This document shows, piece by piece, positions 4,483-34,583 of a stretch of DNA of 64,000 nt. Each line of letters starts with the position of its first letter. Position 1 is the stretch's first letter. A program made the translations under genes and the position numbers. Below the pieces are notes generated by a model. The model was not told the DNA's origin. It was given only the letters and a program-made list of their open reading frames with translations, and did no database searches. The stretch comes from Planctomycetota bacterium (GTDB lineage: Bacteria > Planctomycetota > Planctomycetia > Pirellulales > Pirellulaceae): positions 202-64,201 of the forward strand of contig JANOFL010000142.1 in the NCBI GenBank assembly GCA_031405895.1. Direction: 5' to 3'.

Positions 4483-6543
4483 ATGCGACACAAGACAATT
4501 TTTCTGACGGCATTCGTGGCTGTGGCCACGATTGGCATTCCCCTGTTTCAACCCGCTCTCCACGCCCAAACGGCGCGGGCTGACTTTAACGGCGATGGCC
4601 GGGAGGACCTCGCGATCGGTGTTCCCAACGAGAAAGTCGGCAACAAGAACGCGGCCGGAGCAGTTCACGTCCTCTACGGCTCAACCAGCGGCACGACGGC
4701 CACTGGCAGCCAGTTCTGGAGCCAGGATGGAACCGCGGTCAAGGATAGTCCCGACACCAACGATCACTTCGGCTCGGCCCTCGCGGCCGGTGACTTCAAC
4801 GGCGACGGTTTCGCCGACCTCGCCATCGGCGTGCCGGGCGAAGACGAGGGGCTGGACACCGACTGCGGTGCGGTCAACGTGTTGTATGGCAATTCCGATG
4901 GCCTGCGCGGCTTCAACGACCAGCTTTGGTCGCAGGGCACGCGGGGCATGAAAGGCTTCAAGCAGGACCTCGACGCCTTCGGCTCAGCCCTCGCGTCGGG
5001 CGACTTCAACGGGGATGGTTTCGATGACCTTGCGGTCGGCGTGCCGCTTGAGGATTCCTTCGTGTTTGACGTCCTTCCCAACTCGCGTTTTGTCAACGGT
5101 GGCTGCGTCAATGTGCTCTTCGGCACCGGCCGCGGACTCGACTCCGTCGCGATCACCGGCGACGAGCTGAACGACCAGGTGCTTCAAAACAACCTCGCGT
5201 TCCTGTCGATCAACGAAAACTTCGGGGCGAGCCTCGCGGCCGGCGATTTCAATCACGACGGGCGCGATGACCTGGCGATCGGCATTCCCGGCGACATCGT
5301 GGTCTCGGGAGTTTCCAACAGCGGTTCGGTGAACATCTACATGGGCACCGAGGAAGGTTTCCTCCCGGTCTCGCTGCCGCTCCCGACGCAGCGACACAAT
5401 GGCCCCGCCGTCAACAACATCCGCTTCGGAACAGCCCTCGCATCGGGCGACTTCAACGGCGACCTGTTCATCGACCTGGCGATCGGTTCGCCGTTTGAAT
5501 CGGTCGGCTCGACCACCCAGGCGGGCGTCGTCAAGGTCTTTCGCGGCAGTCTGAGCCTGCTCCAGCCGCTGGTCTCGCCCGTTACGATCAGCCAGCAATC
5601 CGCCTCGGTTCCCAACGTCTCGCAGTCCGGCGACGAATTTGGCGGAGCCTTGGCGGCCGGCGACTACAACGGCGACGGTTTTCAGGATTTGGCCGTCGGC
5701 GTCCCCGGCGAGAACATCGGCACGCTGAACAATTGCGGCGCGGTGAACCTCCTGTACGGCAAGGCCACCGGTCTCGACGGCATCGGTAGCACCGAATTCC
5801 ATGAAGACTCCTTTGCGACCGTAGGAGTAACCACTTTCGGCATAAGCGACATCGCCGAAGCCAACGACCAGTTCGGCCGAACCGCTTTCGCGGGCGACTT
5901 CAACAACGATGGCCGGGACGAACTCGTGATCGGCGTGCCGGGCGAAGCCAGCGGTTCGGGTGCCGTGCATGTCTTCCGCGGTGCCGGGCTGGGCATTTCC
6001 GTACTGAATTCGAACCAATACTGGACGCAAGGCTCGACGGGCATCGCCGGGGGAGTTGAAGCGGGCGACGCTTTTGGCGGTGGACTGCCCTACAGCCCGC
6101 GGCTCGGCCCAGGCGGCCCGGGATTCTCCGGCGTCTGGCAATCCGCGTCGTTCGACTTGCGACGCCGCCAGGACAGGTTTGATTCGCGGGTTCGCGGGGA
6201 GCTGGTCGTGTTCAACCCGGGTGGCGAGCCGGCGGCTGACTCGGTAGTCGAAATCTGGCTGTCGAATGACGACCAGATCTCGGCCGATGACACGCTGATC
6301 CATAGCGAGCGCCGCTTCAAAGCCCTCAAGCCAGGCGAAAGCCACGTGCTGAAGTTCACCGCAATCGTCCAGGGACAGAACGCCTACGGCAAGCGGCTGA
6401 TCGGCTCGCTCGACGCCACCAACGTGGTGGTTGAGGCCAACGAGGCCAACAACCACGTCGTTTCCGATCCGCTTCATCACCAGTTGTGGTACCTGCTCCA
6501 GGGTGCCTGGCAACTGCTCGGCAACCGGTTCGGCTGGCTGTGA
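4483..6543 (+). CDS. Secreted FG-GAP (integrin-alpha-like) repeat protein with C-terminal CARDB-like module
   Basis: Track ORF 4054..6543. Start moved to ATG 4483: MRHKTIFLTAFVAVATIGIPLFQPALHAQ looks like a signal peptide, GGAGG lies at 4470-4474, and the longer ORF reads through repeat 4237-4293. There are seven copies of the signature G.ALA.GDFNGDG..DLA.GVP. Confidence 0.85.
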   Translation: MRHKTIFLTAFVAVATIGIPLFQPALHAQTARADFNGDGREDLAIGVPNEKVGNKNAAGAVHVLYGSTSGTTATGSQFWSQDGTAVKDSPDTNDHFGSALAAGDFNGDGFADLAIGVPGEDEGLDTDCGAVNVLYGNSDGLRGFNDQLWSQGTRGMKGFKQDLDAFGSALASGDFNGDGFDDLAVGVPLEDSFVFDVLPNSRFVNGGCVNVLFGTGRGLDSVAITGDELNDQVLQNNLAFLSINENFGASLAAGDFNHDGRDDLAIGIPGDIVVSGVSNSGSVNIYMGTEEGFLPVSLPLPTQRHNGPAVNNIRFGTALASGDFNGDLFIDLAIGSPFESVGSTTQAGVVKVFRGSLSLLQPLVSPVTISQQSASVPNVSQSGDEFGGALAAGDYNGDGFQDLAVGVPGENIGTLNNCGAVNLLYGKATGLDGIGSTEFHEDSFATVGVTTFGISDIAEANDQFGRTAFAGDFNNDGRDELVIGVPGEASGSGAVHVFRGAGLGISVLNSNQYWTQGSTGIAGGVEAGDAFGGGLPYSPRLGPGGPGFSGVWQSASFDLRRRQDRFDSRVRGELVVFNPGGEPAADSVVEIWLSNDDQISADDTLIHSERRFKALKPGESHVLKFTAIVQGQNAYGKRLIGSLDATNVVVEANEANNHVVSDPLHHQLWYLLQGAWQLLGNRFGWL

Positions 6544-6667: not shown

Positions 6668-8953
6668 TCAGGAAACGGACTTGAGCTTGTCGCGGAGCAG
6701 GCGGCGCATGACCTTGTTGCTGGCGGTGCGGGGGAGGTGGTCGACGGGGTGGATGGCGCGGACTTTGAAGAGCGGGTTGAGGTCGGATTTGAGGCGGGCA
6801 TTCATGGCGGCGAGAAGGGCGGCGGTTTCTGAAACGGTGGCACGTTGCAAACCTGCTCCACCCGGAACGACAGGCTGGAAGCCCATCCCACGGACAGGGA
6901 CGAAGAAAACGTGTAACTCCTCCGGGCCGCCGGAACCGGACCAGGCGACGGCGGCTGTTTCGTGGACTCCGGGGACCTGGTTGAGGACCCGTTCGAGTTC
7001 GGCCGAACTGGTTTTGATGCCGCCGAGGTTCATCGTGTCGTCAACCCGGCCGCCGGCGCAGAAATAGTTGCCAGGCAGGCGGCGGAAGTGGTCGCCGTGG
7101 CGGCGCAAGATGGGGAGCGCGAACGGGGAATCATATCGAGGAGCGCTTTCGGCGAGGTTGAGTGCGGGTTCGCTTCCGGCCGCCGGCCCCTCACCCCCCG
7201 GCCCCCTCTCCCCGAAGACGGGGCGAGGGGGAGATTTTTTGTTTTGGGCTGCTCCGCTGGCTGTGCCGCCGGGTGGGCAGGGTGGGGTGTCGGCGTAGTA
7301 GGTGGCGAAGTGGTCCCGGTTGAGGAGGCTGGTTGAGAGGCCGACGCAGGGCGGAATGATGAAGAGTTCGCCCTGGTCTGTCGGCTGGCCGGCTTCGTCA
7401 AGGATCACGAAATCGATGCCGGCGGCAGGGATCGAGAAAGCGGCGGGGACGTTGGGCAGGAGCAGCGTGGACGAGATGTAGCCACCACCGATCTCGGTGC
7501 CGCCACAGTACTCGATGACAGGTCGCATCCCGGCGAGACTCGCCAGGTAGAACATGTCGTCGGCCCGCGAGCTTTCGCCGGTCGAGCTGAAACAGTGAAT
7601 CCGCGACCAGTCGAAGCCTTCCATCGCGCGACTTTCGCGCCACGCCCGGACGATCGTCGGGACCACGCCGAGCATATTGACCTGGGCGTCCTCGACGAAC
7701 TGGCCAAAGCCGGCACCCATGGGGGCGTCTTCGAATAGCGCGATCGTGCCGCGATTGATCAGGGTCGCGAAGATCAGCCACGGGCCCATCATCCAGCCGA
7801 GGCTGGTCGGCCAGCAGCAAACATGACCCGGCCGGATGTCCTGATGGACCAGACCGTCGACGGCGCACTTGAGCGGCGTCAAATGCGTCCACGGGATGGC
7901 TTTCGGGTCGCCCGTCGTGCCGGACGAAAACAGAACGTTGATGATCTCGGTCGATTCAGCGGAATGCCAAGCGGAGTCGAAACTGCCGGCCGCGAGAAAA
8001 TCGCTCCAGCTCCGGTCGTTGGGCCGCAAGTCGATCGCCAGAGAGGGAAAGGTGGGAGGGAGGGGGTCAGACCCCAATTCGCTCCGAAGACTGCGCGAAT
8101 TGGCGTCAGACCCCGGCGCGTCGGCAATCACAATGGCGGGAAGGTCGGTAGCTTGCTGGACGCGCTGACCCAGCGGAAGCGTTTTGCCACCGCGCACCTG
8201 GACATCACAGGTGAAGACGGCCCGCGCGCTGGCGATTCGCAGGCGGCTGCCAATTTCGGGCGGGGCGAAACTGTCGGCGATCGAGACGACGCGGCAACCG
8301 GCGGCGAGGATGCCGAGATAGAGCGCGACGGTCGTCGGCGTGAGCGGCAGGACGACACCCAGCGCGTCGCCGGCCTCGAATCCGGCCGCCCGGATCGCGC
8401 CGACAATCTGGTTGACCTCGTCGCGCAGCGCGCTGACGGTCCAATGGCGGAGGGTGTTCCCAGGCCGTTGGGACACAATCGCGATCGAGTCGTCCGGTGC
8501 GAGGAAACAGCTGCGCGCAATGTTGAGCCTGGCACCGGGAAACCACTGCGCGCGGGTGCCGCGGAATTCGTCGATTAACGTGGTCGTGGCAGGTTTGTCG
8601 AAAACGATTCCGAGCCGGCTGGCGGCAGCGGTCCAAAACTGGTCGCGATGTGCAAGCGACCAGGCGCGGAAGGCTGCGAAATCCAGGTCGCCGCGTTTGC
8701 GCATCCAGGCGGCGAGCTGTGAGCTTTCGAGGGCGTCCTCATCGGGGAACCACATCGCCGCGGGAGTATCGGTCAGCACTCCCTTGACTTTTTGCGATTC
8801 GACCCACAAGGCGCGCCAGTGTTCGGGTGATAGCGAAAGGGTCTTCGCAGCTGACAGGACGGCTTGCCAGACTTCATCCGGATGATTCGCGCCAGACTCG
8901 CGGCGCAGGCATTCGATGAAGGCGACCGCGTCTGTTTCAGGGCCGAGTGTCAT
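6668..8953 (-). CDS. AMP-dependent synthetase/ligase (acetyl-/acetoacetyl-CoA synthetase-like) carrying two in-frame palindromic-element insertions
   Basis: 761-aa ORF with adenylate-forming motifs SSGTTGDPKAIPW, YCGGTEIGGGY, GRVDDTMNLGGIKTSSAELE and PRTASNKVMRRLLR. The peptides SDANSRSLRSELGSDP and KSPPRPVFGERGPGGEGP are translations of repeats 8062-8116 and 7185-7234. Confidence 0.85.
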   Translation of the reverse strand: MTLGPETDAVAFIECLRRESGANHPDEVWQAVLSAAKTLSLSPEHWRALWVESQKVKGVLTDTPAAMWFPDEDALESSQLAAWMRKRGDLDFAAFRAWSLAHRDQFWTAAASRLGIVFDKPATTTLIDEFRGTRAQWFPGARLNIARSCFLAPDDSIAIVSQRPGNTLRHWTVSALRDEVNQIVGAIRAAGFEAGDALGVVLPLTPTTVALYLGILAAGCRVVSIADSFAPPEIGSRLRIASARAVFTCDVQVRGGKTLPLGQRVQQATDLPAIVIADAPGSDANSRSLRSELGSDPLPPTFPSLAIDLRPNDRSWSDFLAAGSFDSAWHSAESTEIINVLFSSGTTGDPKAIPWTHLTPLKCAVDGLVHQDIRPGHVCCWPTSLGWMMGPWLIFATLINRGTIALFEDAPMGAGFGQFVEDAQVNMLGVVPTIVRAWRESRAMEGFDWSRIHCFSSTGESSRADDMFYLASLAGMRPVIEYCGGTEIGGGYISSTLLLPNVPAAFSIPAAGIDFVILDEAGQPTDQGELFIIPPCVGLSTSLLNRDHFATYYADTPPCPPGGTASGAAQNKKSPPRPVFGERGPGGEGPAAGSEPALNLAESAPRYDSPFALPILRRHGDHFRRLPGNYFCAGGRVDDTMNLGGIKTSSAELERVLNQVPGVHETAAVAWSGSGGPEELHVFFVPVRGMGFQPVVPGGAGLQRATVSETAALLAAMNARLKSDLNPLFKVRAIHPVDHLPRTASNKVMRRLLRDKLKSVS
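7185..7234. repeat. REP-like element family A inside the synthetase ORF
   Basis: ggcccctcaccccccggccccctctccccgaagacggggcgagggggaga shares its left part almost base for base with 1424-1452. The reading frame stays open across it. Confidence 0.8.
8062..8116. repeat. REP-like element family D (GGGTCAGACCCC...GGCGTCAGACCCC long hairpin) inside the synthetase ORF
   Basis: gggggtcagaccccaattcgctccgaagactgcgcgaattggcgtcagaccccgg has roughly 19-nt imperfect complementary arms. An inverted copy lies at 10904-10957. Confidence 0.8.
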
Positions 8954-26685: not shown

Positions 26686-28023
26686 CTAACCATGCGACTT
26701 CTTTGAACCAACGATAATGCAACGACGCCTCGCACGTTCAATCAGATCATCGTACGTAATGATCTCCGCGTCTACCACTGATCGTCTAGCACGCAACAGT
26801 TCGTCGTATTCGTGTCCGCAAGGCGTACGTCCGATGACGACTGCGATCTTCGGCTGCCACGCGCGAAGTCCGTATCGACTGTAAAACTCATTGCGTCGTC
26901 GTGAACTACCAAAGTAATCACGATACTCGCGCAACTGATAGACCGCGCTATTCACCGCGGCAGAAAAGCCTCGCCGATTCTTCGTCCCTATGATCAATTG
27001 CTCATTGGGCTTTTTGAGATCAATTATGTCAACGTAGTTGCGATGTCCAAGTTCCGCGAAGAAGTCGGGTACTAACGGCCCCTCGTCTGCACGGGCGAGC
27101 ACCAGCTCGCTGTGCAATGCGTAATACTGATCGCCCTGCAACAGGTGCGGTTGCCGCAACAAGTATTGGTGGATGTCTCGTTCGGAGACACTTGGCCAGT
27201 TTATCAACTCTTCAAATTCTTCGACTGCACGCTGGTCGACAAAAGGAGCGGCGGCGGAAACCTGAACAACCAAGTCTTGTGGTGCGACATTCCGCTCCTC
27301 GTATTTCAATCCGTCAAGCAATGCAAACGTTTTTAGCCGTAAACGCCCGCCGGGGCCAAAGCTTAGTAGAAACTGCTGCGTTTCTGCAAACGGTTCAAGT
27401 GTTTTGAACCGTGCGAGTTCGGTACGAAGGCGATCCTGAGAAACACGCGCCTTCCGGAATATCTCGGAAGTGAAGGGAAGCTCTGCGATCGCCGGGATGA
27501 AGTCTATAGTCTCTATTCTGTTACGATGGTCCGCCGTAGCCGCTGCCAAGGCACTTAAAAAGATCTCTGGCGTTGATGCATCGAGAATGCGCCCGGCGGT
27601 CGCATAGTCGGGTTCTCCTTCGACACCGACATACTCGAGTTCGGGTGTCTCCTCGTCGCGGCTAATGTAGTCGATGTCGCCGTCACCGAAGTCATAGTCG
27701 CGGAAGAGTCGATCGGTCTCTTTGAAGCCCTTTAATCTCAACTCTTCTCGGACAAAGTCTTCGTCCTTGGACGAGGCTTGCCAGATGGCTAGATCGTCTG
27801 TCTCGGTGAAATCGAGATGGAAGCGGTCCGTGATGTGAGCTAGGACGGAATTTGTTCTTCGCAAACCGAGGGAAACGAATGTCTCGTCGCAGTATTTTAT
27901 TGAACCTGAGAGCCCAATCGCTGTTGCAAGTGATCGACGTGCCTTGTCAGTAAGCGCGAAGCCGTGGCGCGTGAAGTAGTTTGAAGTGATTGCTAACAGG
28001 TCCACCAAAGATCTCCGACTCAT
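26686..28023 (-). CDS. sduA: Shedu anti-phage defence protein (SduA, DUF4263 PD-(D/E)xK nuclease domain)
   Basis: The C-terminal half follows the DUF4263 pattern: ERDIHQYLLRQPHLL, LVPDFFAEL, NYVDIIDLKKPNEQLI (D...D-x-K), SAVYQLREYRDYF, PKIAVVIGR, AEIITYDDLIERA. The gene is markedly AT-richer than its surroundings. Confidence 0.85.
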   Translation of the reverse strand: MSRRSLVDLLAITSNYFTRHGFALTDKARRSLATAIGLSGSIKYCDETFVSLGLRRTNSVLAHITDRFHLDFTETDDLAIWQASSKDEDFVREELRLKGFKETDRLFRDYDFGDGDIDYISRDEETPELEYVGVEGEPDYATAGRILDASTPEIFLSALAAATADHRNRIETIDFIPAIAELPFTSEIFRKARVSQDRLRTELARFKTLEPFAETQQFLLSFGPGGRLRLKTFALLDGLKYEERNVAPQDLVVQVSAAAPFVDQRAVEEFEELINWPSVSERDIHQYLLRQPHLLQGDQYYALHSELVLARADEGPLVPDFFAELGHRNYVDIIDLKKPNEQLIIGTKNRRGFSAAVNSAVYQLREYRDYFGSSRRRNEFYSRYGLRAWQPKIAVVIGRTPCGHEYDELLRARRSVVDAEIITYDDLIERARRRCIIVGSKKSHG

Positions 28024-29673: not shown

Positions 29674-29708
29674 CAGGCGAATTCAACTGTTAGACCCACG
29701 AATTGATT

Positions 29709-31028
29709 ATGGGGGCCATCGACGAGTTTATCGGTCGGTACCGCAAGGAATACGACTTCTACGATCAGGCAGCGCGCCTAGTCGCCCAACTCCTTGAGGC
29801 TCGCCTCCAAGCCTCCGGCGTTCGAGCGATGGTAACTTTTCGTGCAAAGACCATCGGCAAGCTCGAGAGCAAGGTGCGAGATCGAGAAAAGCGCAAGAGT
29901 TATTTGACGGTCGACGATATCTACTCGGACATTCCTGATCTGGCCGGTGCACGGGTCGCGTTGTATTTCCCGGCACAGCGGAACCAGGTCGAGTTGCTCA
30001 TCAACGAGAGTTTCGTCATGGTCAAGACGAAGTCGTTTCCAGACGGGACAACTTCCGCTTACCCAAAGCGATTCTCGGGGTATTCTGCTACCCACTATAG
30101 GGTGCGGCTACGTGAGAGCGCGTTGGTCGATTCGCAGAAGCGGTATGCGGAAGCGCCAGTTGAAATTCAGGTCGCGTCGGTCCTGATGCATGCTTGGTCA
30201 GAGGTGGAACACGATCTTGTATACAAACCCTACCAAGGCACCTTGTCGGAAGACGAGTACGCGATCTTGGACGAGCTGAATGGGATGGTCATGGCTGGCG
30301 AGATCGCTCTTGAGCGTCTCCAGAGAGCGGGCGATGCACGCGTCGCTGCTCGCGGGCGGGTGTTCGCGAACCACTACGAACTCGCCGCACACCTTCTAAG
30401 CGTCTTACGCGGCTTCGCTGAGCCCGACGTCCTGAAGGCCGGATTGGGCCGGGTTGATCTGCTGTTCGACCTGCTCGCTCGACTGGTACTGGGTACACCA
30501 GAAGCCATCGATCGTTATTTGGAAGCCCTTCATCCGGACTTGGAGCGCCGCCCGATCGCCGATCAGATCGTGGATCAAGTGCTGTCAGAGGACGCCGGGC
30601 GCTATCAGACCTACGAGGCGATCCGCGCGGCCCGACCGTCTCCGGACGTTGCGGCAGCAGCGATTGAACCCCTTCAGCCCGACGTCCATGAGGCAATGGG
30701 TGAGTTCCTGAGCGCTTGGATCGAGTTCGAACGGCTGACACGAGAGATGGTTCCCCCCGATGCACGTCAGCGAGGACCCATAATACCGACACTAAGAGTT
30801 CTGTCTTCGCTTGCCAATCTTGATGACGACACCCGTTTCCAGTTTGAGCGACTACGCAGGATGCGGAACCAGCTAGTGCACGGAATCGAAATACCTGACC
30901 CAAGGGATCTGCGGGAAGCCGCGCGGCAACTCGATGGAATTCGGAATCGCCTATTCCCTCAGCCACCGGGGTCTAAACAGCCGATGCAGCCGACCGGATT
31001 CGCCGACGGCGGAGCTTTAGGCCTTTAG
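29709..31028 (+). CDS. RelA/SpoT-type nucleotidyltransferase (small-alarmone-synthetase-like) fused to a C-terminal HEPN-like domain
   Basis: N-terminal ~185 aa carry every RelA_SpoT synthetase motif: FRAKTIGKLESKV, DLAGARV, GYSATHY, EIQVASVLMHAWSEVEHDLVYK. The C-terminal ~110 aa read EFLSAWIEFERLTRE...FERLRRMRNQLVHG, with R-x4-H at nt 30864-30881. No hydrolase (HD) domain and no signal peptide. The first ATG is at 29709 (the track starts at TTG 29703). Confidence 0.8.
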   Translation: MGAIDEFIGRYRKEYDFYDQAARLVAQLLEARLQASGVRAMVTFRAKTIGKLESKVRDREKRKSYLTVDDIYSDIPDLAGARVALYFPAQRNQVELLINESFVMVKTKSFPDGTTSAYPKRFSGYSATHYRVRLRESALVDSQKRYAEAPVEIQVASVLMHAWSEVEHDLVYKPYQGTLSEDEYAILDELNGMVMAGEIALERLQRAGDARVAARGRVFANHYELAAHLLSVLRGFAEPDVLKAGLGRVDLLFDLLARLVLGTPEAIDRYLEALHPDLERRPIADQIVDQVLSEDAGRYQTYEAIRAARPSPDVAAAAIEPLQPDVHEAMGEFLSAWIEFERLTREMVPPDARQRGPIIPTLRVLSSLANLDDDTRFQFERLRRMRNQLVHGIEIPDPRDLREAARQLDGIRNRLFPQPPGSKQPMQPTGFADGGALGL

Positions 31029-31425: not shown

Positions 31426-31905
31426 TCAGGAGCTGGCGTGCGTCTGCGCGGCTTGCGCGAAAACGATTTCGCCGACTTCGGCCTCGAGCTCTTCCGGCAG
31501 GTCGGGAGGCGAAGCGAATTGCCATTCGACGGCAGGTGCCGTGTAACCTGTGCCTGCGGAAGCACGGGATCGCTGGCGGGACTTGAGTGGCACGCCGAAG
31601 ACCCTTGCAAAATCGTCTGTCGAGCCTTCAATGGCGATTCCCGACAGACTGGAACGGGCGACATGAAGGCCCAGTTTCCGGAGTGCCTTGGACACCCGTT
31701 CCACCCGTGGCTGGTCGACTGCAATCGCAGCCTGGCCACGTTCGGGGGAACGGGCGGAAGTTTTGCTGATCCGTTGGGCGTTGCCGGAGAACGTCACATA
31801 GGCGCGGACCGTCGATGGCTGGCGCTTGCCTTTCGTCGCGGCAGGCTTTGCTTTCCTGGCTGGTTTCGCGGTCTTTTCTCCGCCAACCGGCTTGCGCTTC
31901 GCCAT
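31426..31905 (-). CDS. Stand-alone protease-prodomain-like protein with Lys/Ala/Pro-rich basic N-terminal tail
   Basis: MAKRKPVGGEKTAKPARKAKPAATKGKRQPS, then VRAYVTF...RVERVSKALRKLGLHVARSSLSGIAIEGSTDDFARVFGV. This aligns with residues ~53-130 of the adjacent subtilase (IVAYVSP...RVTTAARNKLEAMGFQIERVSQLSIRVSGPAKLFQQKMGV) and has the look of a pro-kumamolisin/I9-type activation domain. It lies 35 nt downstream of the S8 gene on the same strand. Confidence 0.7.
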   Translation of the reverse strand: MAKRKPVGGEKTAKPARKAKPAATKGKRQPSTVRAYVTFSGNAQRISKTSARSPERGQAAIAVDQPRVERVSKALRKLGLHVARSSLSGIAIEGSTDDFARVFGVPLKSRQRSRASAGTGYTAPAVEWQFASPPDLPEELEAEVGEIVFAQAAQTHASS

Positions 31906-31940
31906 GTTTCGAACAGGCTCTCAATCGGTGGATGAATCGG

Positions 31941-33503
31941 TCAATGGCATGCCGCGGCCGCGTCGACCAGACCGAATCCGGTGGCCAGGTCACGACCGGG
32001 ACCAGCCGGATCACCCATGCTGCTCTGGCCCTTTTTCACGTCGCGACAGGAGGTTTCAAGCCGCTTTCGGACTTGGGCCAGAGTCAGGTTGGGGTGTTTC
32101 GACAGCATCAATGCTACGACTCCCGCGATCATCGGACAAGCCGCGCTGGTGCCGCTGAACACTCCCCAGCCATCGTTCTTTTTCGTTTCGTCGCCGTTGG
32201 GCCAGGTTCCCCCGGCGAGATTCTTGTCCAGCTCGCAGCCGGGCGGAATGGGCAAAGCGATGTACTTCGCGCCGGGTTGCATCCCGCACAGTCCGCAGAC
32301 ATCCGGAACTTGCCGGCCGGGGAACCGGAAGCTGTTGAAACTGCTGGCGTAGTCCGAAGCTTCCAGTTTGCCGTCCTGCCTCTGATGAACGCCGCCCACG
32401 CTGATCACATCCGGGCAGCTCGCTGTCGCCGACATGTGGCCATTGCCCGCGGAAAAGAGCACGATCATGCCGGCTTGGGCGCAGAGGCCGATTTCAGCGA
32501 GTACCAGCGACCAATAGGGATCCCAGGTGCTGAACGGACCATCGGTGGGGCTCGCCGATCCCCAGCTGTTGCTGACGATCTTGACTTTGAGGTCATCGCG
32601 CGCGATCTGGAACGCCGCGACGGCATCGTCCATCTTGAGCCCATGCAGTTTGACTTTGGGCGCGATCGCCAGCAGGTTGGCGCTCTCGCCTGTGCCGTGT
32701 CCATTGGAGTCGGTGTCGTTCGGCGATGGCGCGCTGAGTGAAAAGCCCTTGCCCTTGAACCACGGATGCGACCAGTCGAAGCCGCTGTCGATCATCGCGG
32801 CCTTGACTCCCTGGCCACGTTTGCCCGACGCATGGACCGGCCCGGCATTCAGGATCGCGACGAGGTCGTCGGGGACATTGAGATGGAAGTAGTTCAGGCT
32901 GGGCGGCGTGGGAGACGGGCCGCTGGCTGCCGCCGGTGCCGCCCGGCGTGACGCTTTCCGTGTCGGCCGGCGGGCCGGCCGAGCGGACGCCGCCGTTTTT
33001 TTCTTCGCGTGCCACTCGATGGGTTGGGGAAACGCCGCGCCCTCCAGCACCTCGGAGCCAAGGTTCAGCGCGTTCATTGCGCTTTCAGCCGTTGGCAGAT
33101 ACATCGCCGAGGTGTCCTTCTCGAACTTGACGCCCATCTTCTGCTGGAAGAGCTTCGCCGGCCCGGAAACCCGGATGCTGAGCTGGGAGACGCGCTCGAT
33201 CTGGAAACCCATCGCCTCGAGCTTGTTCCGCGCCGCGGTTGTCACCCGCTTTTCCGACCGGAATGCCGACACATTCGCCGCCGCCAGATTGGCCGCCGGA
33301 TCAAACAGGCTTTGTCCGCCGAGCGAACGGGGCGAGACATAGGCCACGATGTGGTCTTTGGAAGTGTTGGTCATGGGAGCATGGCCAGAGGAAGTCCCAC
33401 TGGATCCTGCCTTCCCTTTGGGGGACGCCGAGCGCTTGCGTTTGGGGGACGCGGAACGCTTGCGTTTGGGGGACGCCGAAGCCTTGCGTAATTGGGCAGC
33501 CAT
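31941..33503 (-). CDS. Subtilisin-family (S8) serine peptidase without signal peptide, with SPKK-like basic N-terminal repeats and an internal prodomain
   Basis: Catalytic triad contexts MIDSGFD, NGHGTGESA and SGTSAACPMIAGVVAL, plus oxyanion SAGNG. The N-terminus is MAAQLRKASASPKRKRSASPKRKRSASPKGK, with a second basic linker KKKTAASARPARRPTRKASRRAAP. The first ATG is at 33503 (the track starts at TTG 33509). Confidence 0.85.
   Translation of the reverse strand: MAAQLRKASASPKRKRSASPKRKRSASPKGKAGSSGTSSGHAPMTNTSKDHIVAYVSPRSLGGQSLFDPAANLAAANVSAFRSEKRVTTAARNKLEAMGFQIERVSQLSIRVSGPAKLFQQKMGVKFEKDTSAMYLPTAESAMNALNLGSEVLEGAAFPQPIEWHAKKKTAASARPARRPTRKASRRAAPAAASGPSPTPPSLNYFHLNVPDDLVAILNAGPVHASGKRGQGVKAAMIDSGFDWSHPWFKGKGFSLSAPSPNDTDSNGHGTGESANLLAIAPKVKLHGLKMDDAVAAFQIARDDLKVKIVSNSWGSASPTDGPFSTWDPYWSLVLAEIGLCAQAGMIVLFSAGNGHMSATASCPDVISVGGVHQRQDGKLEASDYASSFNSFRFPGRQVPDVCGLCGMQPGAKYIALPIPPGCELDKNLAGGTWPNGDETKKNDGWGVFSGTSAACPMIAGVVALMLSKHPNLTLAQVRKRLETSCRDVKKGQSSMGDPAGPGRDLATGFGLVDAAAACH
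33417..33488. repeat. 3 x 24-bp perfect-phase tandem repeat encoding (RKRSASPK)n
   Basis: tttgggggacgccgagcgcttgcg / tttgggggacgcggaacgcttgcg / tttgggggacgccgaagccttgcg, inside the 5' end of the S8 gene. Confidence 0.85.
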
Positions 33504-34089
33504 GTTCAAGACCTTTCAGAAAAACCGGGAACGAAGTTGAGGCCGGCAATGCTCACATCCGGCGTTACGGTATTCAAGCATGCTCCCCCTTGAACTTGAG
33601 TGCCCGACCGCGCAATCTGCCCCCGGCCGCGACACGGGTTTGAAGCCAGCCGTTAGCGGAGTGGCCGCGACCTGAAATTCCCGAAACGCGGGGAGCCGTT
33701 TCGCCCAACCACGACACTTCTTGCTGCCGTGTTCACGAAACGGCAACGCTCCATCAAACGGCAGAACTGGCCGCAACGCATGCGGGTTCACCAGTCGCAA
33801 TCAGTCCGCAGGGCAAGTCCCTGGTTCTCTGGACTGGTCGACATGGCGTCGTCAACTTCGGCGACTGGACCGACCAGCTTGGGATTGTTGGCGGCCGGCT
33901 GCAGCGCTGCGACCGGGCCGAGTCGCTGGATTCACTTCGGAAGGGGGACGAATGGAGGACACCGGCAAATCCGGAGTTACCTGAAGACGCGCCAGTTCTG
34001 GATGAAGTCCGCGCGGAAATTGTTTCGATGCCTGGAAGTGACTGATCCCGCGCCAGCACAGCCGTGCAGTCAACCAGGGCCAGTGGCGC

Positions 34090-34216
34090 ATTTTGAAGTT
34101 GCGCTTTGTGGTTTTTGCCGCAGAAATACCAGCCCGCAGCGCAAGCAGGGACCGCCCCAGGGCTGCTTGTCCCTTGCTTGCGCTGCGGGCTGGTATCGAA
34201 ACCGCAACTTCAAAAG
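34090..34216. repeat. MITE-like nested palindrome built from family E arms
   Basis: Outer arms are ttttgaagttgcg (34091-34103) and cgcaacttcaaaa (34203-34215). Inner arms are ataccagcccgcagcgcaagcaggga and tcccttgcttgcgctgcgggctggtat. Confidence 0.8.
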
Positions 34217-34583
34217 TGGAGCATGGGCGCCAATTGCTTGCCTCAACGCTTTCGCCGCGGTAGCGTGTTGAACTCCACGCGACTGCCTCCGTGGACAAGA
34301 GTTGCCTTGTTTCGCTCCGTTCCGGACCAACGATCTGGTGTTCGAAACGCGAAGCCCCTTCCGCTGTGCTGAACATCCGTACCCGCCGGCCGTAATGGTC
34401 GTGCCGGACGGCTTCGTTCAGACAGTGTTTCCCGGGCGAAGCTGACTTGTTGCAGAAAAAAACCGGACGGACGCCAGCAGTTTGGGCCAGGCTTGCAGCA
34501 GGTGCATGGCGTTGACCGCTTCCCGTCCGCCCGATTGGCCCGAGCCATCGGGACGAACAGACTCTTGAAACGAGGAACCAGCG

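Follow-up and report, generated by a model that had tools for sequence, protein, structure and literature searches.

A leaderless subtilase and a free-standing prodomain paralogue as a candidate trans-inhibited protease pair in Planctomycetota and other prokaryotes

The S8 protease and the adjacent small gene

Contig JANOFL010000142.1 (assembly GCA_031405895.1) of a Planctomycetota bacterium of the family Pirellulaceae carries a protease gene and a small companion gene, which are the subject of this analysis. The DNA analyzed, referred to here as the window, is a stretch of 64,000 nucleotides in which two co-directional open reading frames (ORFs) were found on the minus strand, where the initial annotation had placed them: a subtilase gene of family S8 at 31941-33503 (its product is called S8 below) and a small ORF at 31426-31905. 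The features of the two genes are listed below, with positions in the proteins given in amino acids (aa). The evidence named in brackets includes hidden Markov models (HMM) and AlphaFold2 (AF2) models with their predicted local distance difference test (pLDDT) scores.

31941..33503, minus strand: S8 subtilase gene, 520 aa from the ATG at 33503, stop codon at 31941-31943 (ORF list, Pfam Peptidase_S8, AF2)
33375..33503, minus strand: possible N-terminal tail of S8, aa 1-43, with three copies of SPKRKRSA (SPKR, SPKR, SPKG), translation uncertain (AF2 pLDDT <50)
33417..33489, minus strand: 24-bp in-frame tandem repeat, 3.0 copies, coding for the SPKRKRSA repeats (Tandem Repeats Finder score 116, 88% matches)
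33372..33374, minus strand: alternative start codon, Met44 of S8, used in the public NCBI gene call
33009..33374, minus strand: predicted S8 prodomain, aa 44-165, sedolisin/Pro-kuma_activ-like, ending ...FPQPIEWH (HMM, hhalign, AF2 and PDB zymogen matches)
32904..33008, minus strand: Lys/Arg/Ala-rich linker of S8, aa 166-200, directly after the predicted prodomain/catalytic junction (pLDDT low, 61-83)
31944..32903, minus strand: S8 catalytic domain, aa 201-520 (residue invariance in 72 aligned homologues)
32787-32789, 32697-32699, 32442-32444 and 32145-32147, minus strand: S8 active-site codons for D239, H269, oxyanion N354 and S453, respectively (from sequence)
31906..31940, minus strand: 35-nt intergenic spacer from S8 to the small gene, operon-like (sequence; same layout in Logan contig L002)
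31426..31905, minus strand: predicted free-standing prodomain paralogue, 159 aa, with its own start and stop (iterated HMM, hhalign, AF2)
31813..31905, minus strand: basic Lys/Ala/Pro N-terminal tail of the small protein, aa 1-31 (sequence)
31438..31812, minus strand: predicted prodomain-like fold of the small protein, aa 32-156, ending ...FAQAAQTH, followed only by ASS and the stop (alignment to FPQPIEWH of S8)

Promoter and terminator scans of this locus returned scores no better than those of shuffles.

The sole Pfam match of S8 was to Peptidase_S8 (PF00082), which covered aa 230-489 with an E value of 1.1e-26 and a score of 94.3 bits (cut-off 21.8). Residues D239, H269, the oxyanion N354 and S453 were invariant among 72 aligned homologues, with the triad in the order Asp-His-Ser, and the intact D/H/S triad described in the initial annotation was confirmed by this invariance. 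Judged by its sequence, the 520-aa protein belongs to Peptidase S8. A PDB sequence search with S8 retrieved generic subtilisins only (7xr8, E 2e-20, over the catalytic domain). The AF2 model of the full-length protein was confident, with a pLDDT of 90.6 and a predicted template modelling score (pTM) of 0.88; aa 1-43 were disordered in it, and the linker at aa 165-200 was of low confidence.

No hydrophobic stretch was detected at the N-terminus of S8, where the highest 12-aa Kyte-Doolittle mean within the first 70 aa was 0.73, and a hydrophobic N-terminus was also absent in 119 of 120 database homologues. Because the window protein and its homologues agree in this respect, the S8 family as a whole lacks Sec, Tat or lipoprotein signals, which bears out the earlier claim that S8 lacks a signal peptide. 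A secreted subtilisin was ruled out for the same reason.

Prodomain homology, conservation and basic segments

The similarity between the small protein and the N-terminal domain of S8 was marginal in a direct BLASTP comparison (27% identity over 107 aa, E=0.035) and became clear when families were compared. With hhalign, the S8 N-domain family and the small-protein family aligned end to end over 105 columns with a probability of 99.5% and an E value of 2.5e-23, in an alignment that took in the C-terminal motif FPxPxxxH, and the control comparison of the catalytic domain with the small family gave a probability of 0.06%. An HMM that took the 159-aa protein as its seed and was run iteratively over the ORFs of 82 related loci recovered small proteins of 76-235 aa in 66 of these loci. 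The same HMM also matched the N-terminal domain of S8 in essentially every locus (E 1e-10 to 1e-22), including aa 44-137 of the window S8 (E 8.6e-12). As for sensitivity, a word-indexed search for homologues of the 159-aa protein retrieved nothing beyond the protein itself, and its relatives came to light only in exhaustive phmmer (24 matches) and profile searches.

The type of prodomain was indicated by Pfam family PF09286 (Pro-kuma_activ), which was matched by 32 of 63 aligned relatives of the small protein (best E 2.3e-7) and, weakly, by two of 72 S8 proteins. Neither the small protein of the window nor the prodomain of its S8 matched PF09286 at E <= 0.01-0.1, no Inhibitor_I9 match was found for the prodomain modules, and searches of Pfam, NCBIfam and PADLOC returned no match for the window small protein. 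Structural comparisons pointed in the same direction. In Foldseek searches, the full-length S8 model had pro-kumamolisin (1t1e) as its top match (E 7e-19, 580 columns), and its best PDB matches were intact zymogens, namely 1t1e, fervidolysin 1r6v, ProN-Tk-SP 3afg and unprocessed pro-subtilisin E 3whi. For the small protein, the model likewise had 1t1e at the top (E 5e-3, probability 1.0, 133 columns) and matched tripeptidyl peptidase I (TPP1, 3ee6) as well. Since the HMM, hhalign, PF09286 and AF2/PDB lines of evidence agree, the N-terminal module of S8 is predicted to be a genuine sedolisin-type prodomain that is docked as in zymogens, and the 159-aa protein, by profile and model comparison, is its free-standing homologue. 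Neither the sedolisin (Pro-kuma_activ) type of the prodomain nor the radical S-adenosylmethionine (SAM) enzyme of the type that matures peptides made on ribosomes and modified after translation (RiPPs), found in some relatives, featured in the initial annotation.

The two kinds of prodomain separated cleanly in a joint alignment, in which the nearest neighbour was always of the same kind for 66 of 66 S8 prodomains and 66 of 66 small proteins. Within a locus, prodomain and small protein shared a median identity of 20%, and the window pair 16%. These comparisons indicate that the small protein is an anciently diverged prodomain paralogue that is co-inherited and co-evolving with the protease; a recent tandem duplication of the prodomain was ruled out by the age of the paralogy, as seen in the same-kind nearest neighbours. 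The earlier description of the small protein as a second copy of the prodomain of S8 is correct as to homology, and what does not stand is the notion of a recent copy of the protease's own module.

The S8 family gave more than 2,000 homologue matches and was phylogenetically scattered. Its bacterial hosts include Planctomycetota, Verrucomicrobiota (Luteolibacter), Actinomycetota, Cyanobacteria, Bacillota, Bacteroidota, Deinococcota, Acidobacteriota and Proteobacteria, and its archaeal hosts Methanosarcina, Methanotrichaceae and Thermoplasmatota. The small gene was found beside S8 in at least 66 of the 82 related loci, which were sampled at the species level across many bacterial phyla and archaea, and the pair was present in all five further loci that were fetched (two of them near-identical). 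The small gene may lie directly upstream or downstream of S8, some 2 kb downstream of it or on the opposite strand, and the retention of the pair despite this varying order and strand argues for a functional and not merely historical linkage. A chance ORF was ruled out, the small gene being conserved in at least 66 loci, and the initial annotation, against which a pairing confined to this genome would have counted, is upheld on this point. The small partner was always annotated as a hypothetical protein.

Several loci departed from the common arrangement. The HMM did not find a free prodomain partner in loci L089, L012 and L056. The first of these (5992-12201 of L089) lies on a 557-kb megaplasmid of Bacillus wiedmannii (NZ_CP133558.1) and carries three clustered S8 peptidase genes, two with the prodomain-like N-domain of the family and a third that was not detected by the HMM. 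At a B. cereus locus (L083), a 213-aa upstream ORF at 4950-5591 bears a prodomain-like domain (E 3e-15). In Luteolibacter sp. CP161812.1 (L001), the annotated 102-aa partner gene at 7588-7896 does not include the domain's first beta-strand. A 157-aa ORF at 7423-7896 regains this strand and adds a basic tail, and because the strand is restored in this way the public start codon of that partner is probably wrong.

Both proteins of the window carry basic segments, of which the linker of S8, KKKTAASARPARRPTRKASRRAAP, is certainly translated. It corresponds to a clade-specific Lys/Arg/Ala insertion of 20-40 aa directly after '..ELH' in the subclade comprising P0001-P0023, P0027, P0029 and P0039, the sister clades having a 14-aa non-basic linker. 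If S8 is processed at the junction, the mature enzyme would start with this basic linker tail. The basic tail of the small protein must likewise be translated for the most part, since strand beta-1 (VRAYVTF, aa 33-39) has no internal Met ahead of it, and similar tails were found in relatives P0128, P0140 and P0144. The correspondence between a basic S8 linker and a basic N-terminal tail on the partner holds partly; in L091 and L092 the basic segment of the partner is C-terminal or short.

The status of the SPKRKRSA repeats of S8 is different. SPKR twice and SPKG once are encoded, upstream of the start codon that NCBI and the nearest homologues share. NCBI begins the gene at Met44 (P0001, 477 aa, 100% identical) and Logan at Met1, for a product of 520 aa, and the nearest dozen homologues (P0002-P0013) begin 'M.NTSKDR' at a Met aligned to Met44. 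Translation of the first 43 codons is doubtful on account of these starts, and the SPKRKRSA tail may be untranslated. The G+C content at third codon positions was 0.65 for these 43 codons versus 0.77 for the rest of the gene. Unambiguous basic N-terminal tails were present in more distant S8 proteins, in 16 of 120 annotated homologues (e.g., P0014, P0048 and P0054). Of the basic tails that the initial annotation ascribed to the pair, the linker and the tail of the small protein are as described, and the S8 SPKK tail is real as a DNA repeat and uncertain as protein.

The N-terminal extensions of the partner vary as well, being basic tails in some clades, a lipoprotein-type signal peptide in some cyanobacteria and absent in many. 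Because it differs among clades, the extension looks like an exchangeable localisation module. The lipoprotein-type signal (e.g., MKSSIIVLIFIIVLVAASNSC) was seen on small proteins P0238, P0242, P0251, P0259, P0260 and P0234 (e.g., L026 872-1408), and the cyanobacterial small proteins of this type have an internal Met just before the domain. Tethering of the proteins to DNA or other nucleic acids by the basic tails is a guess.

Predicted inhibition in trans and alternative roles

The C-terminus of the small protein was compared with the position at which S8 is predicted to be processed. In 63 of 66 pairs, the small protein stops 0-4 residues past the position aligned with the prodomain/linker junction, and the junction residue agrees by clade between S8 and partner, His occurring with His and Phe/Tyr with Phe/Tyr. 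In the window, S8 reads ...FPQPIEWH/AKKK at the junction (slash) and the partner ...FAQAAQTH-ASS-stop, which ends three residues past it; in the cyanobacterial and Deinococcus types, the corresponding sequences are ...PPILF/ESP and ...EPPEFF-stop. Product-mimic inhibition by the cleaved prodomain is classical for subtilases, and kumamolisin has a similar junction at its own activation site, ...GPH/FF. An inhibitor that acts as a product mimic would be expected to end at the junction, and the C-terminus seen here would accordingly fit a free end of the partner lying in the S-subsites like that of a cleaved prodomain.

In the mechanism proposed here, the product of the first gene would be a cytoplasmic subtilase zymogen composed of a sedolisin-type prodomain, a disordered basic linker and an S8 catalytic domain. 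S8 would fold and cut off its own prodomain, and the free prodomain would then dock on the same surface, with the C-terminal residues of the small protein occupying the substrate cleft and mimicking a product there. The mature intracellular S8 would be tightly inhibited until the inhibitor is degraded, titrated or displaced, and both proteins may be directed to a polyanion (nucleic acid, polyphosphate or membrane, for instance) by the basic tails that the small protein and the mature protease carry, the latter at its N-terminus. We consider it moderately probable, from sequence comparisons and predicted structures, that the locus is a two-gene module of this kind, in which a cytoplasmic subtilase zymogen is accompanied by a separately encoded prodomain paralogue that inhibits it in trans. 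Among the roles considered for the small protein, that of a trans-acting inhibitor is the most likely.

A number of observations weigh against this interpretation. Shared ancestry could account in part for the agreement of the C-terminal residues, and it was the small proteins themselves that defined the end of the HMM. The small protein of the window was below every Pfam threshold and its AF2 model was only moderate (pLDDT 74). About 14 of the 82 loci were without a detectable small partner. In a cyanobacterial subclade the small protein has a lipoprotein-type signal peptide and the partner S8 has none, which is awkward for a cytoplasmic inhibitor. Finally, a gene for an RiPP-type radical SAM enzyme separates S8 from the small gene in 11 of the 82 loci, a hint that modification may be involved in some lineages.

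A role in defence would be a biological function added on top of the inhibitor mechanism. The pair would then form an abortive-infection or toxin-antitoxin-like module in which S8 is the effector of suicide or dormancy and the free prodomain serves as a labile antitoxin, its loss on phage infection setting proteolysis free. Two genes near the pair favor such a role:

26686-28023, minus strand: Shedu SduA gene, 445 aa, with an SduA C-terminal nuclease domain (Pfam SduA_C E 4e-15; PADLOC SduA E 7e-22)
29703-31028, plus strand: RelA_SpoT-like gene, 441 aa, with an N-terminal small alarmone synthetase-like domain, convergent to the S8 operon and directly downstream of it

The Shedu gene is a bona fide defence gene at a distance of 3.4 kb from the pair. 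The RelA_SpoT-like protein has an unassigned C-terminal region of about 250 aa with the motif RNQLVH (Rx4H, HEPN-like) and a weak PADLOC match to PDC-S33, and its gene may be a toxSAS/CapRel-like element. Additionally, the patchy bacterial and archaeal distribution of the family suggests horizontal transfer, and protease-based defence modules are widespread (PMC12642450).

The wider neighbourhood evidence argues against this role. A census of nearest neighbours (134 genes at 80 loci) revealed no recurrent Pfam family, any one family accounting for at most three of the 134 genes, and the inspected neighbourhoods of relatives hold housekeeping genes (ribonucleotide reductase, DnaE, PBP and TilS). 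When neighbour ORFs were clustered by BLAST, shadow ORFs of the S8 gene predominated and little was gained. No phage record encodes the S8 protease, and only 25 plasmid records carry its gene, mostly non-mobilizable megaplasmids and mostly from Bacillus and Rhizobium. The sole PADLOC match of the pair was that of the generic subtilase model PDLC03014 to the S8 catalytic domain (E 4.8e-13), with none for the small protein, and no sensor domain is present. We regard a defence function as unlikely. The leaderless subtilase with a prodomain acting in trans, as first proposed, is upheld by homology, predicted structure and conserved synteny; the toxin-antitoxin-like logic in a defence-type island that was proposed along with it is not, as the Shedu and RelA_SpoT-like genes are a local association only and the neighbourhoods of the family are heterogeneous. 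A broader version is similarly doubtful, in which a widespread prokaryotic zymogen switch held in trans would serve as a cell-fate or defence effector, with histone-H1-like tails parking both proteins on nucleic acid in the planctomycete/verrucomicrobial clade and the prodomain being degraded, displaced or, in some lineages, modified by the radical SAM enzyme.

Among described anti-phage systems, ietAS and other protease-containing systems resemble the locus in having an S8-type protease, here in a region that also carries Shedu. Unlike ietAS, the locus has no IetA-like ATPase, the neighbours of S8 being the small prodomain gene, the RelA_SpoT-like gene and a Sortilin-like gene. ietAS was ruled out for want of an adjacent ATPase, whose absence the initial annotation had reported correctly. 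The locus also differs from protease-effector systems in having no STAND, retron or other sensor domain and no effector partner of a known kind (MBL, alpha/beta-hydrolase, Pepco or EACC1), its partner being an inhibitor-like prodomain.

The other genes around the pair require only brief mention. The remaining neighbours in the window encode typical planctomycete secreted or repeat proteins. Upstream of S8 there is about 1 kb of apparently gene-free DNA (33510-34583). It contains a palindromic hairpin at 34116-34206 with weak Rfam matches to miRNA models on both strands (E 0.03), which is probably an inverted repeat only. In two relatives of the basic-linker clade (L090 2137-3941 and L091 1-1818), genes for Trypsin_2 and Endonuclease_NS (a non-specific nuclease) adjoin the pair, and in L091 the two are fused into one protein of 734 aa.

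A second alternative draws on the radical SAM variants and holds that the small protein is the scaffold or precursor of an RiPP-like maturation system, recognized, and perhaps modified and trimmed, by S8 as a dedicated processing peptidase. The inserted enzyme is a B12/radical SAM protein assigned to TIGR03975, 'RiPP maturation radical SAM C-methyltransferase' (E ~1e-197), and the cassette has the order S8, TIGR03975 enzyme, small prodomain protein. It was found in L079 (5788-10666), L008, L013, L019, L037, L042, L044, L061, L065, L070 and L077. In the four of these loci that were read in detail (L079, L019, L070 and L077), S8 carries a C-terminal Pro-rich repeat together with an acidic tail, and the small gene is followed by one for a conserved protein of 213-250 aa that has no family assignment and an HxD...H-like motif; a PDB sequence search with the 213-aa protein returned nothing. 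The small proteins of most radical SAM loci end in an extra short 'DFGPxxx', which, together with the TIGR03975 enzyme and the conserved protein after it, is consistent with maturation. So is the triad of APH kinase, HopA1-like lyase and LANC_like cyclase just downstream of the pair in L087/L088 (11117-14640), which resembles class V lanthipeptide machinery.

The window itself offers little room for such a system. An HMM search for the radical SAM enzyme over all window ORFs gave no match, and with no modifying-enzyme ORF in the window an RiPP cluster was ruled out for this locus. Because of this negative result, the RiPP-like reading is a rival for the family and not for the window locus. Moreover, 55 of 66 pairs have no radical SAM enzyme, the small protein of the window ends so close to the junction that no core peptide is left, and a conserved globular fold takes up the small protein entirely, which sets it apart from the usual leader and core. 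We consider RiPP-like maturation quite improbable.

It is very unlikely that the free prodomain acts as a folding chaperone in trans, that is, as an intermolecular foldase that folds and activates the catalytic domain and exerts no restraint. Prodomains of subtilases and of alpha-lytic protease can be foldases in trans (PMC6993865), and the tight operon coupling of the pair would agree with this function. S8, however, has its own well-conserved cis prodomain, which is confidently predicted to dock as in zymogens, and a second foldase would therefore be redundant. Least probable is a latent effector or decoy substrate cleaved by S8, as in Pepco and EACC1 modules, for although small proteins beside defence proteases can be cleavage-activated toxins (PMC12642450), the one studied here has a soluble prodomain fold that lacks any hydrophobic or pore-forming segment (highest 19-aa hydropathy mean 0.76), and it has no sequence past the junction to release.

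Related systems and implications

The interpretation of the small protein as a trans-acting inhibitor has its closest precedents in eukaryotes, where stand-alone propeptide-like proteins are potent subtilase inhibitors (PMC6993865). These include yeast PBI2, Pleurotus POIA1, Arabidopsis SPI-1, Toxoplasma MIC5 (TgMIC5) and Plasmodium SUB1-ProM, the last of which has its gene next to subtilase genes and is a potent, selective inhibitor; all that have been characterized are eukaryotic, mostly from secretory or vacuolar compartments (PMC6993865). The window pair resembles such inhibitors of the MEROPS I9 type in that a small, separately encoded protein of prodomain fold is linked to a subtilase, its inhibition being predicted here. 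Unlike them, the pair is prokaryotic, leaderless and operonic and is spread across many phyla and archaea, and its prodomain is of the sedolisin Pro-kuma_activ type and not Inhibitor_I9.

Sedolisins (family S53) are secreted or lysosomal acid proteases, and we know of no free-standing prodomain partner described for them. The pair is like their zymogens, pro-kumamolisin and tripeptidyl peptidase I, which were the best structural matches (1t1e and 3ee6) of the S8 model and the small protein, and half of the small-protein family matches Pro-kuma_activ. It is unlike S53 in its catalytic domain, which is a classical S8 domain with D/H/S and an Asn oxyanion residue instead of Ser/Glu/Asp.

Subtilases that act inside the cell or spore are represented by Bacillus ISP/AprX and Clostridium CspB. 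The inhibitory element of ISPs is a short N-terminal extension, and in CspB the prodomain reportedly stays on as an inhibitor. None of these proteases is known to have a separately encoded prodomain paralogue, in which they differ from the pair, and the sequence similarity of ISP/AprX to S8 is confined to the generic catalytic domain; some S8 homologues have been labelled AprX by JGI. Literature searches on a bacterial subtilase with a free prodomain, on stand-alone PF09286 proteins and on TIGR03975 found nothing relevant. Altogether, sequence and model comparisons suggest that the pair is a previously undescribed prokaryotic version of the known principle of stand-alone propeptide inhibition.

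Regulated intracellular proteolysis by prokaryotic subtilases is poorly understood, and the module described here is compact (two genes), widespread (more than 2,000 S8 relatives) and wholly unannotated. Should the free prodomain prove to be a dedicated inhibitor, the stand-alone propeptide principle, known only from eukaryotes, would extend to bacteria and archaea, where the pair would provide a simple on/off switch for a protease. The radical SAM, membrane-anchor and basic-tail variants suggest that the same core has been rewired several times, and because of this apparent rewiring the family may offer a useful entry point to the substrates of cytoplasmic subtilases.

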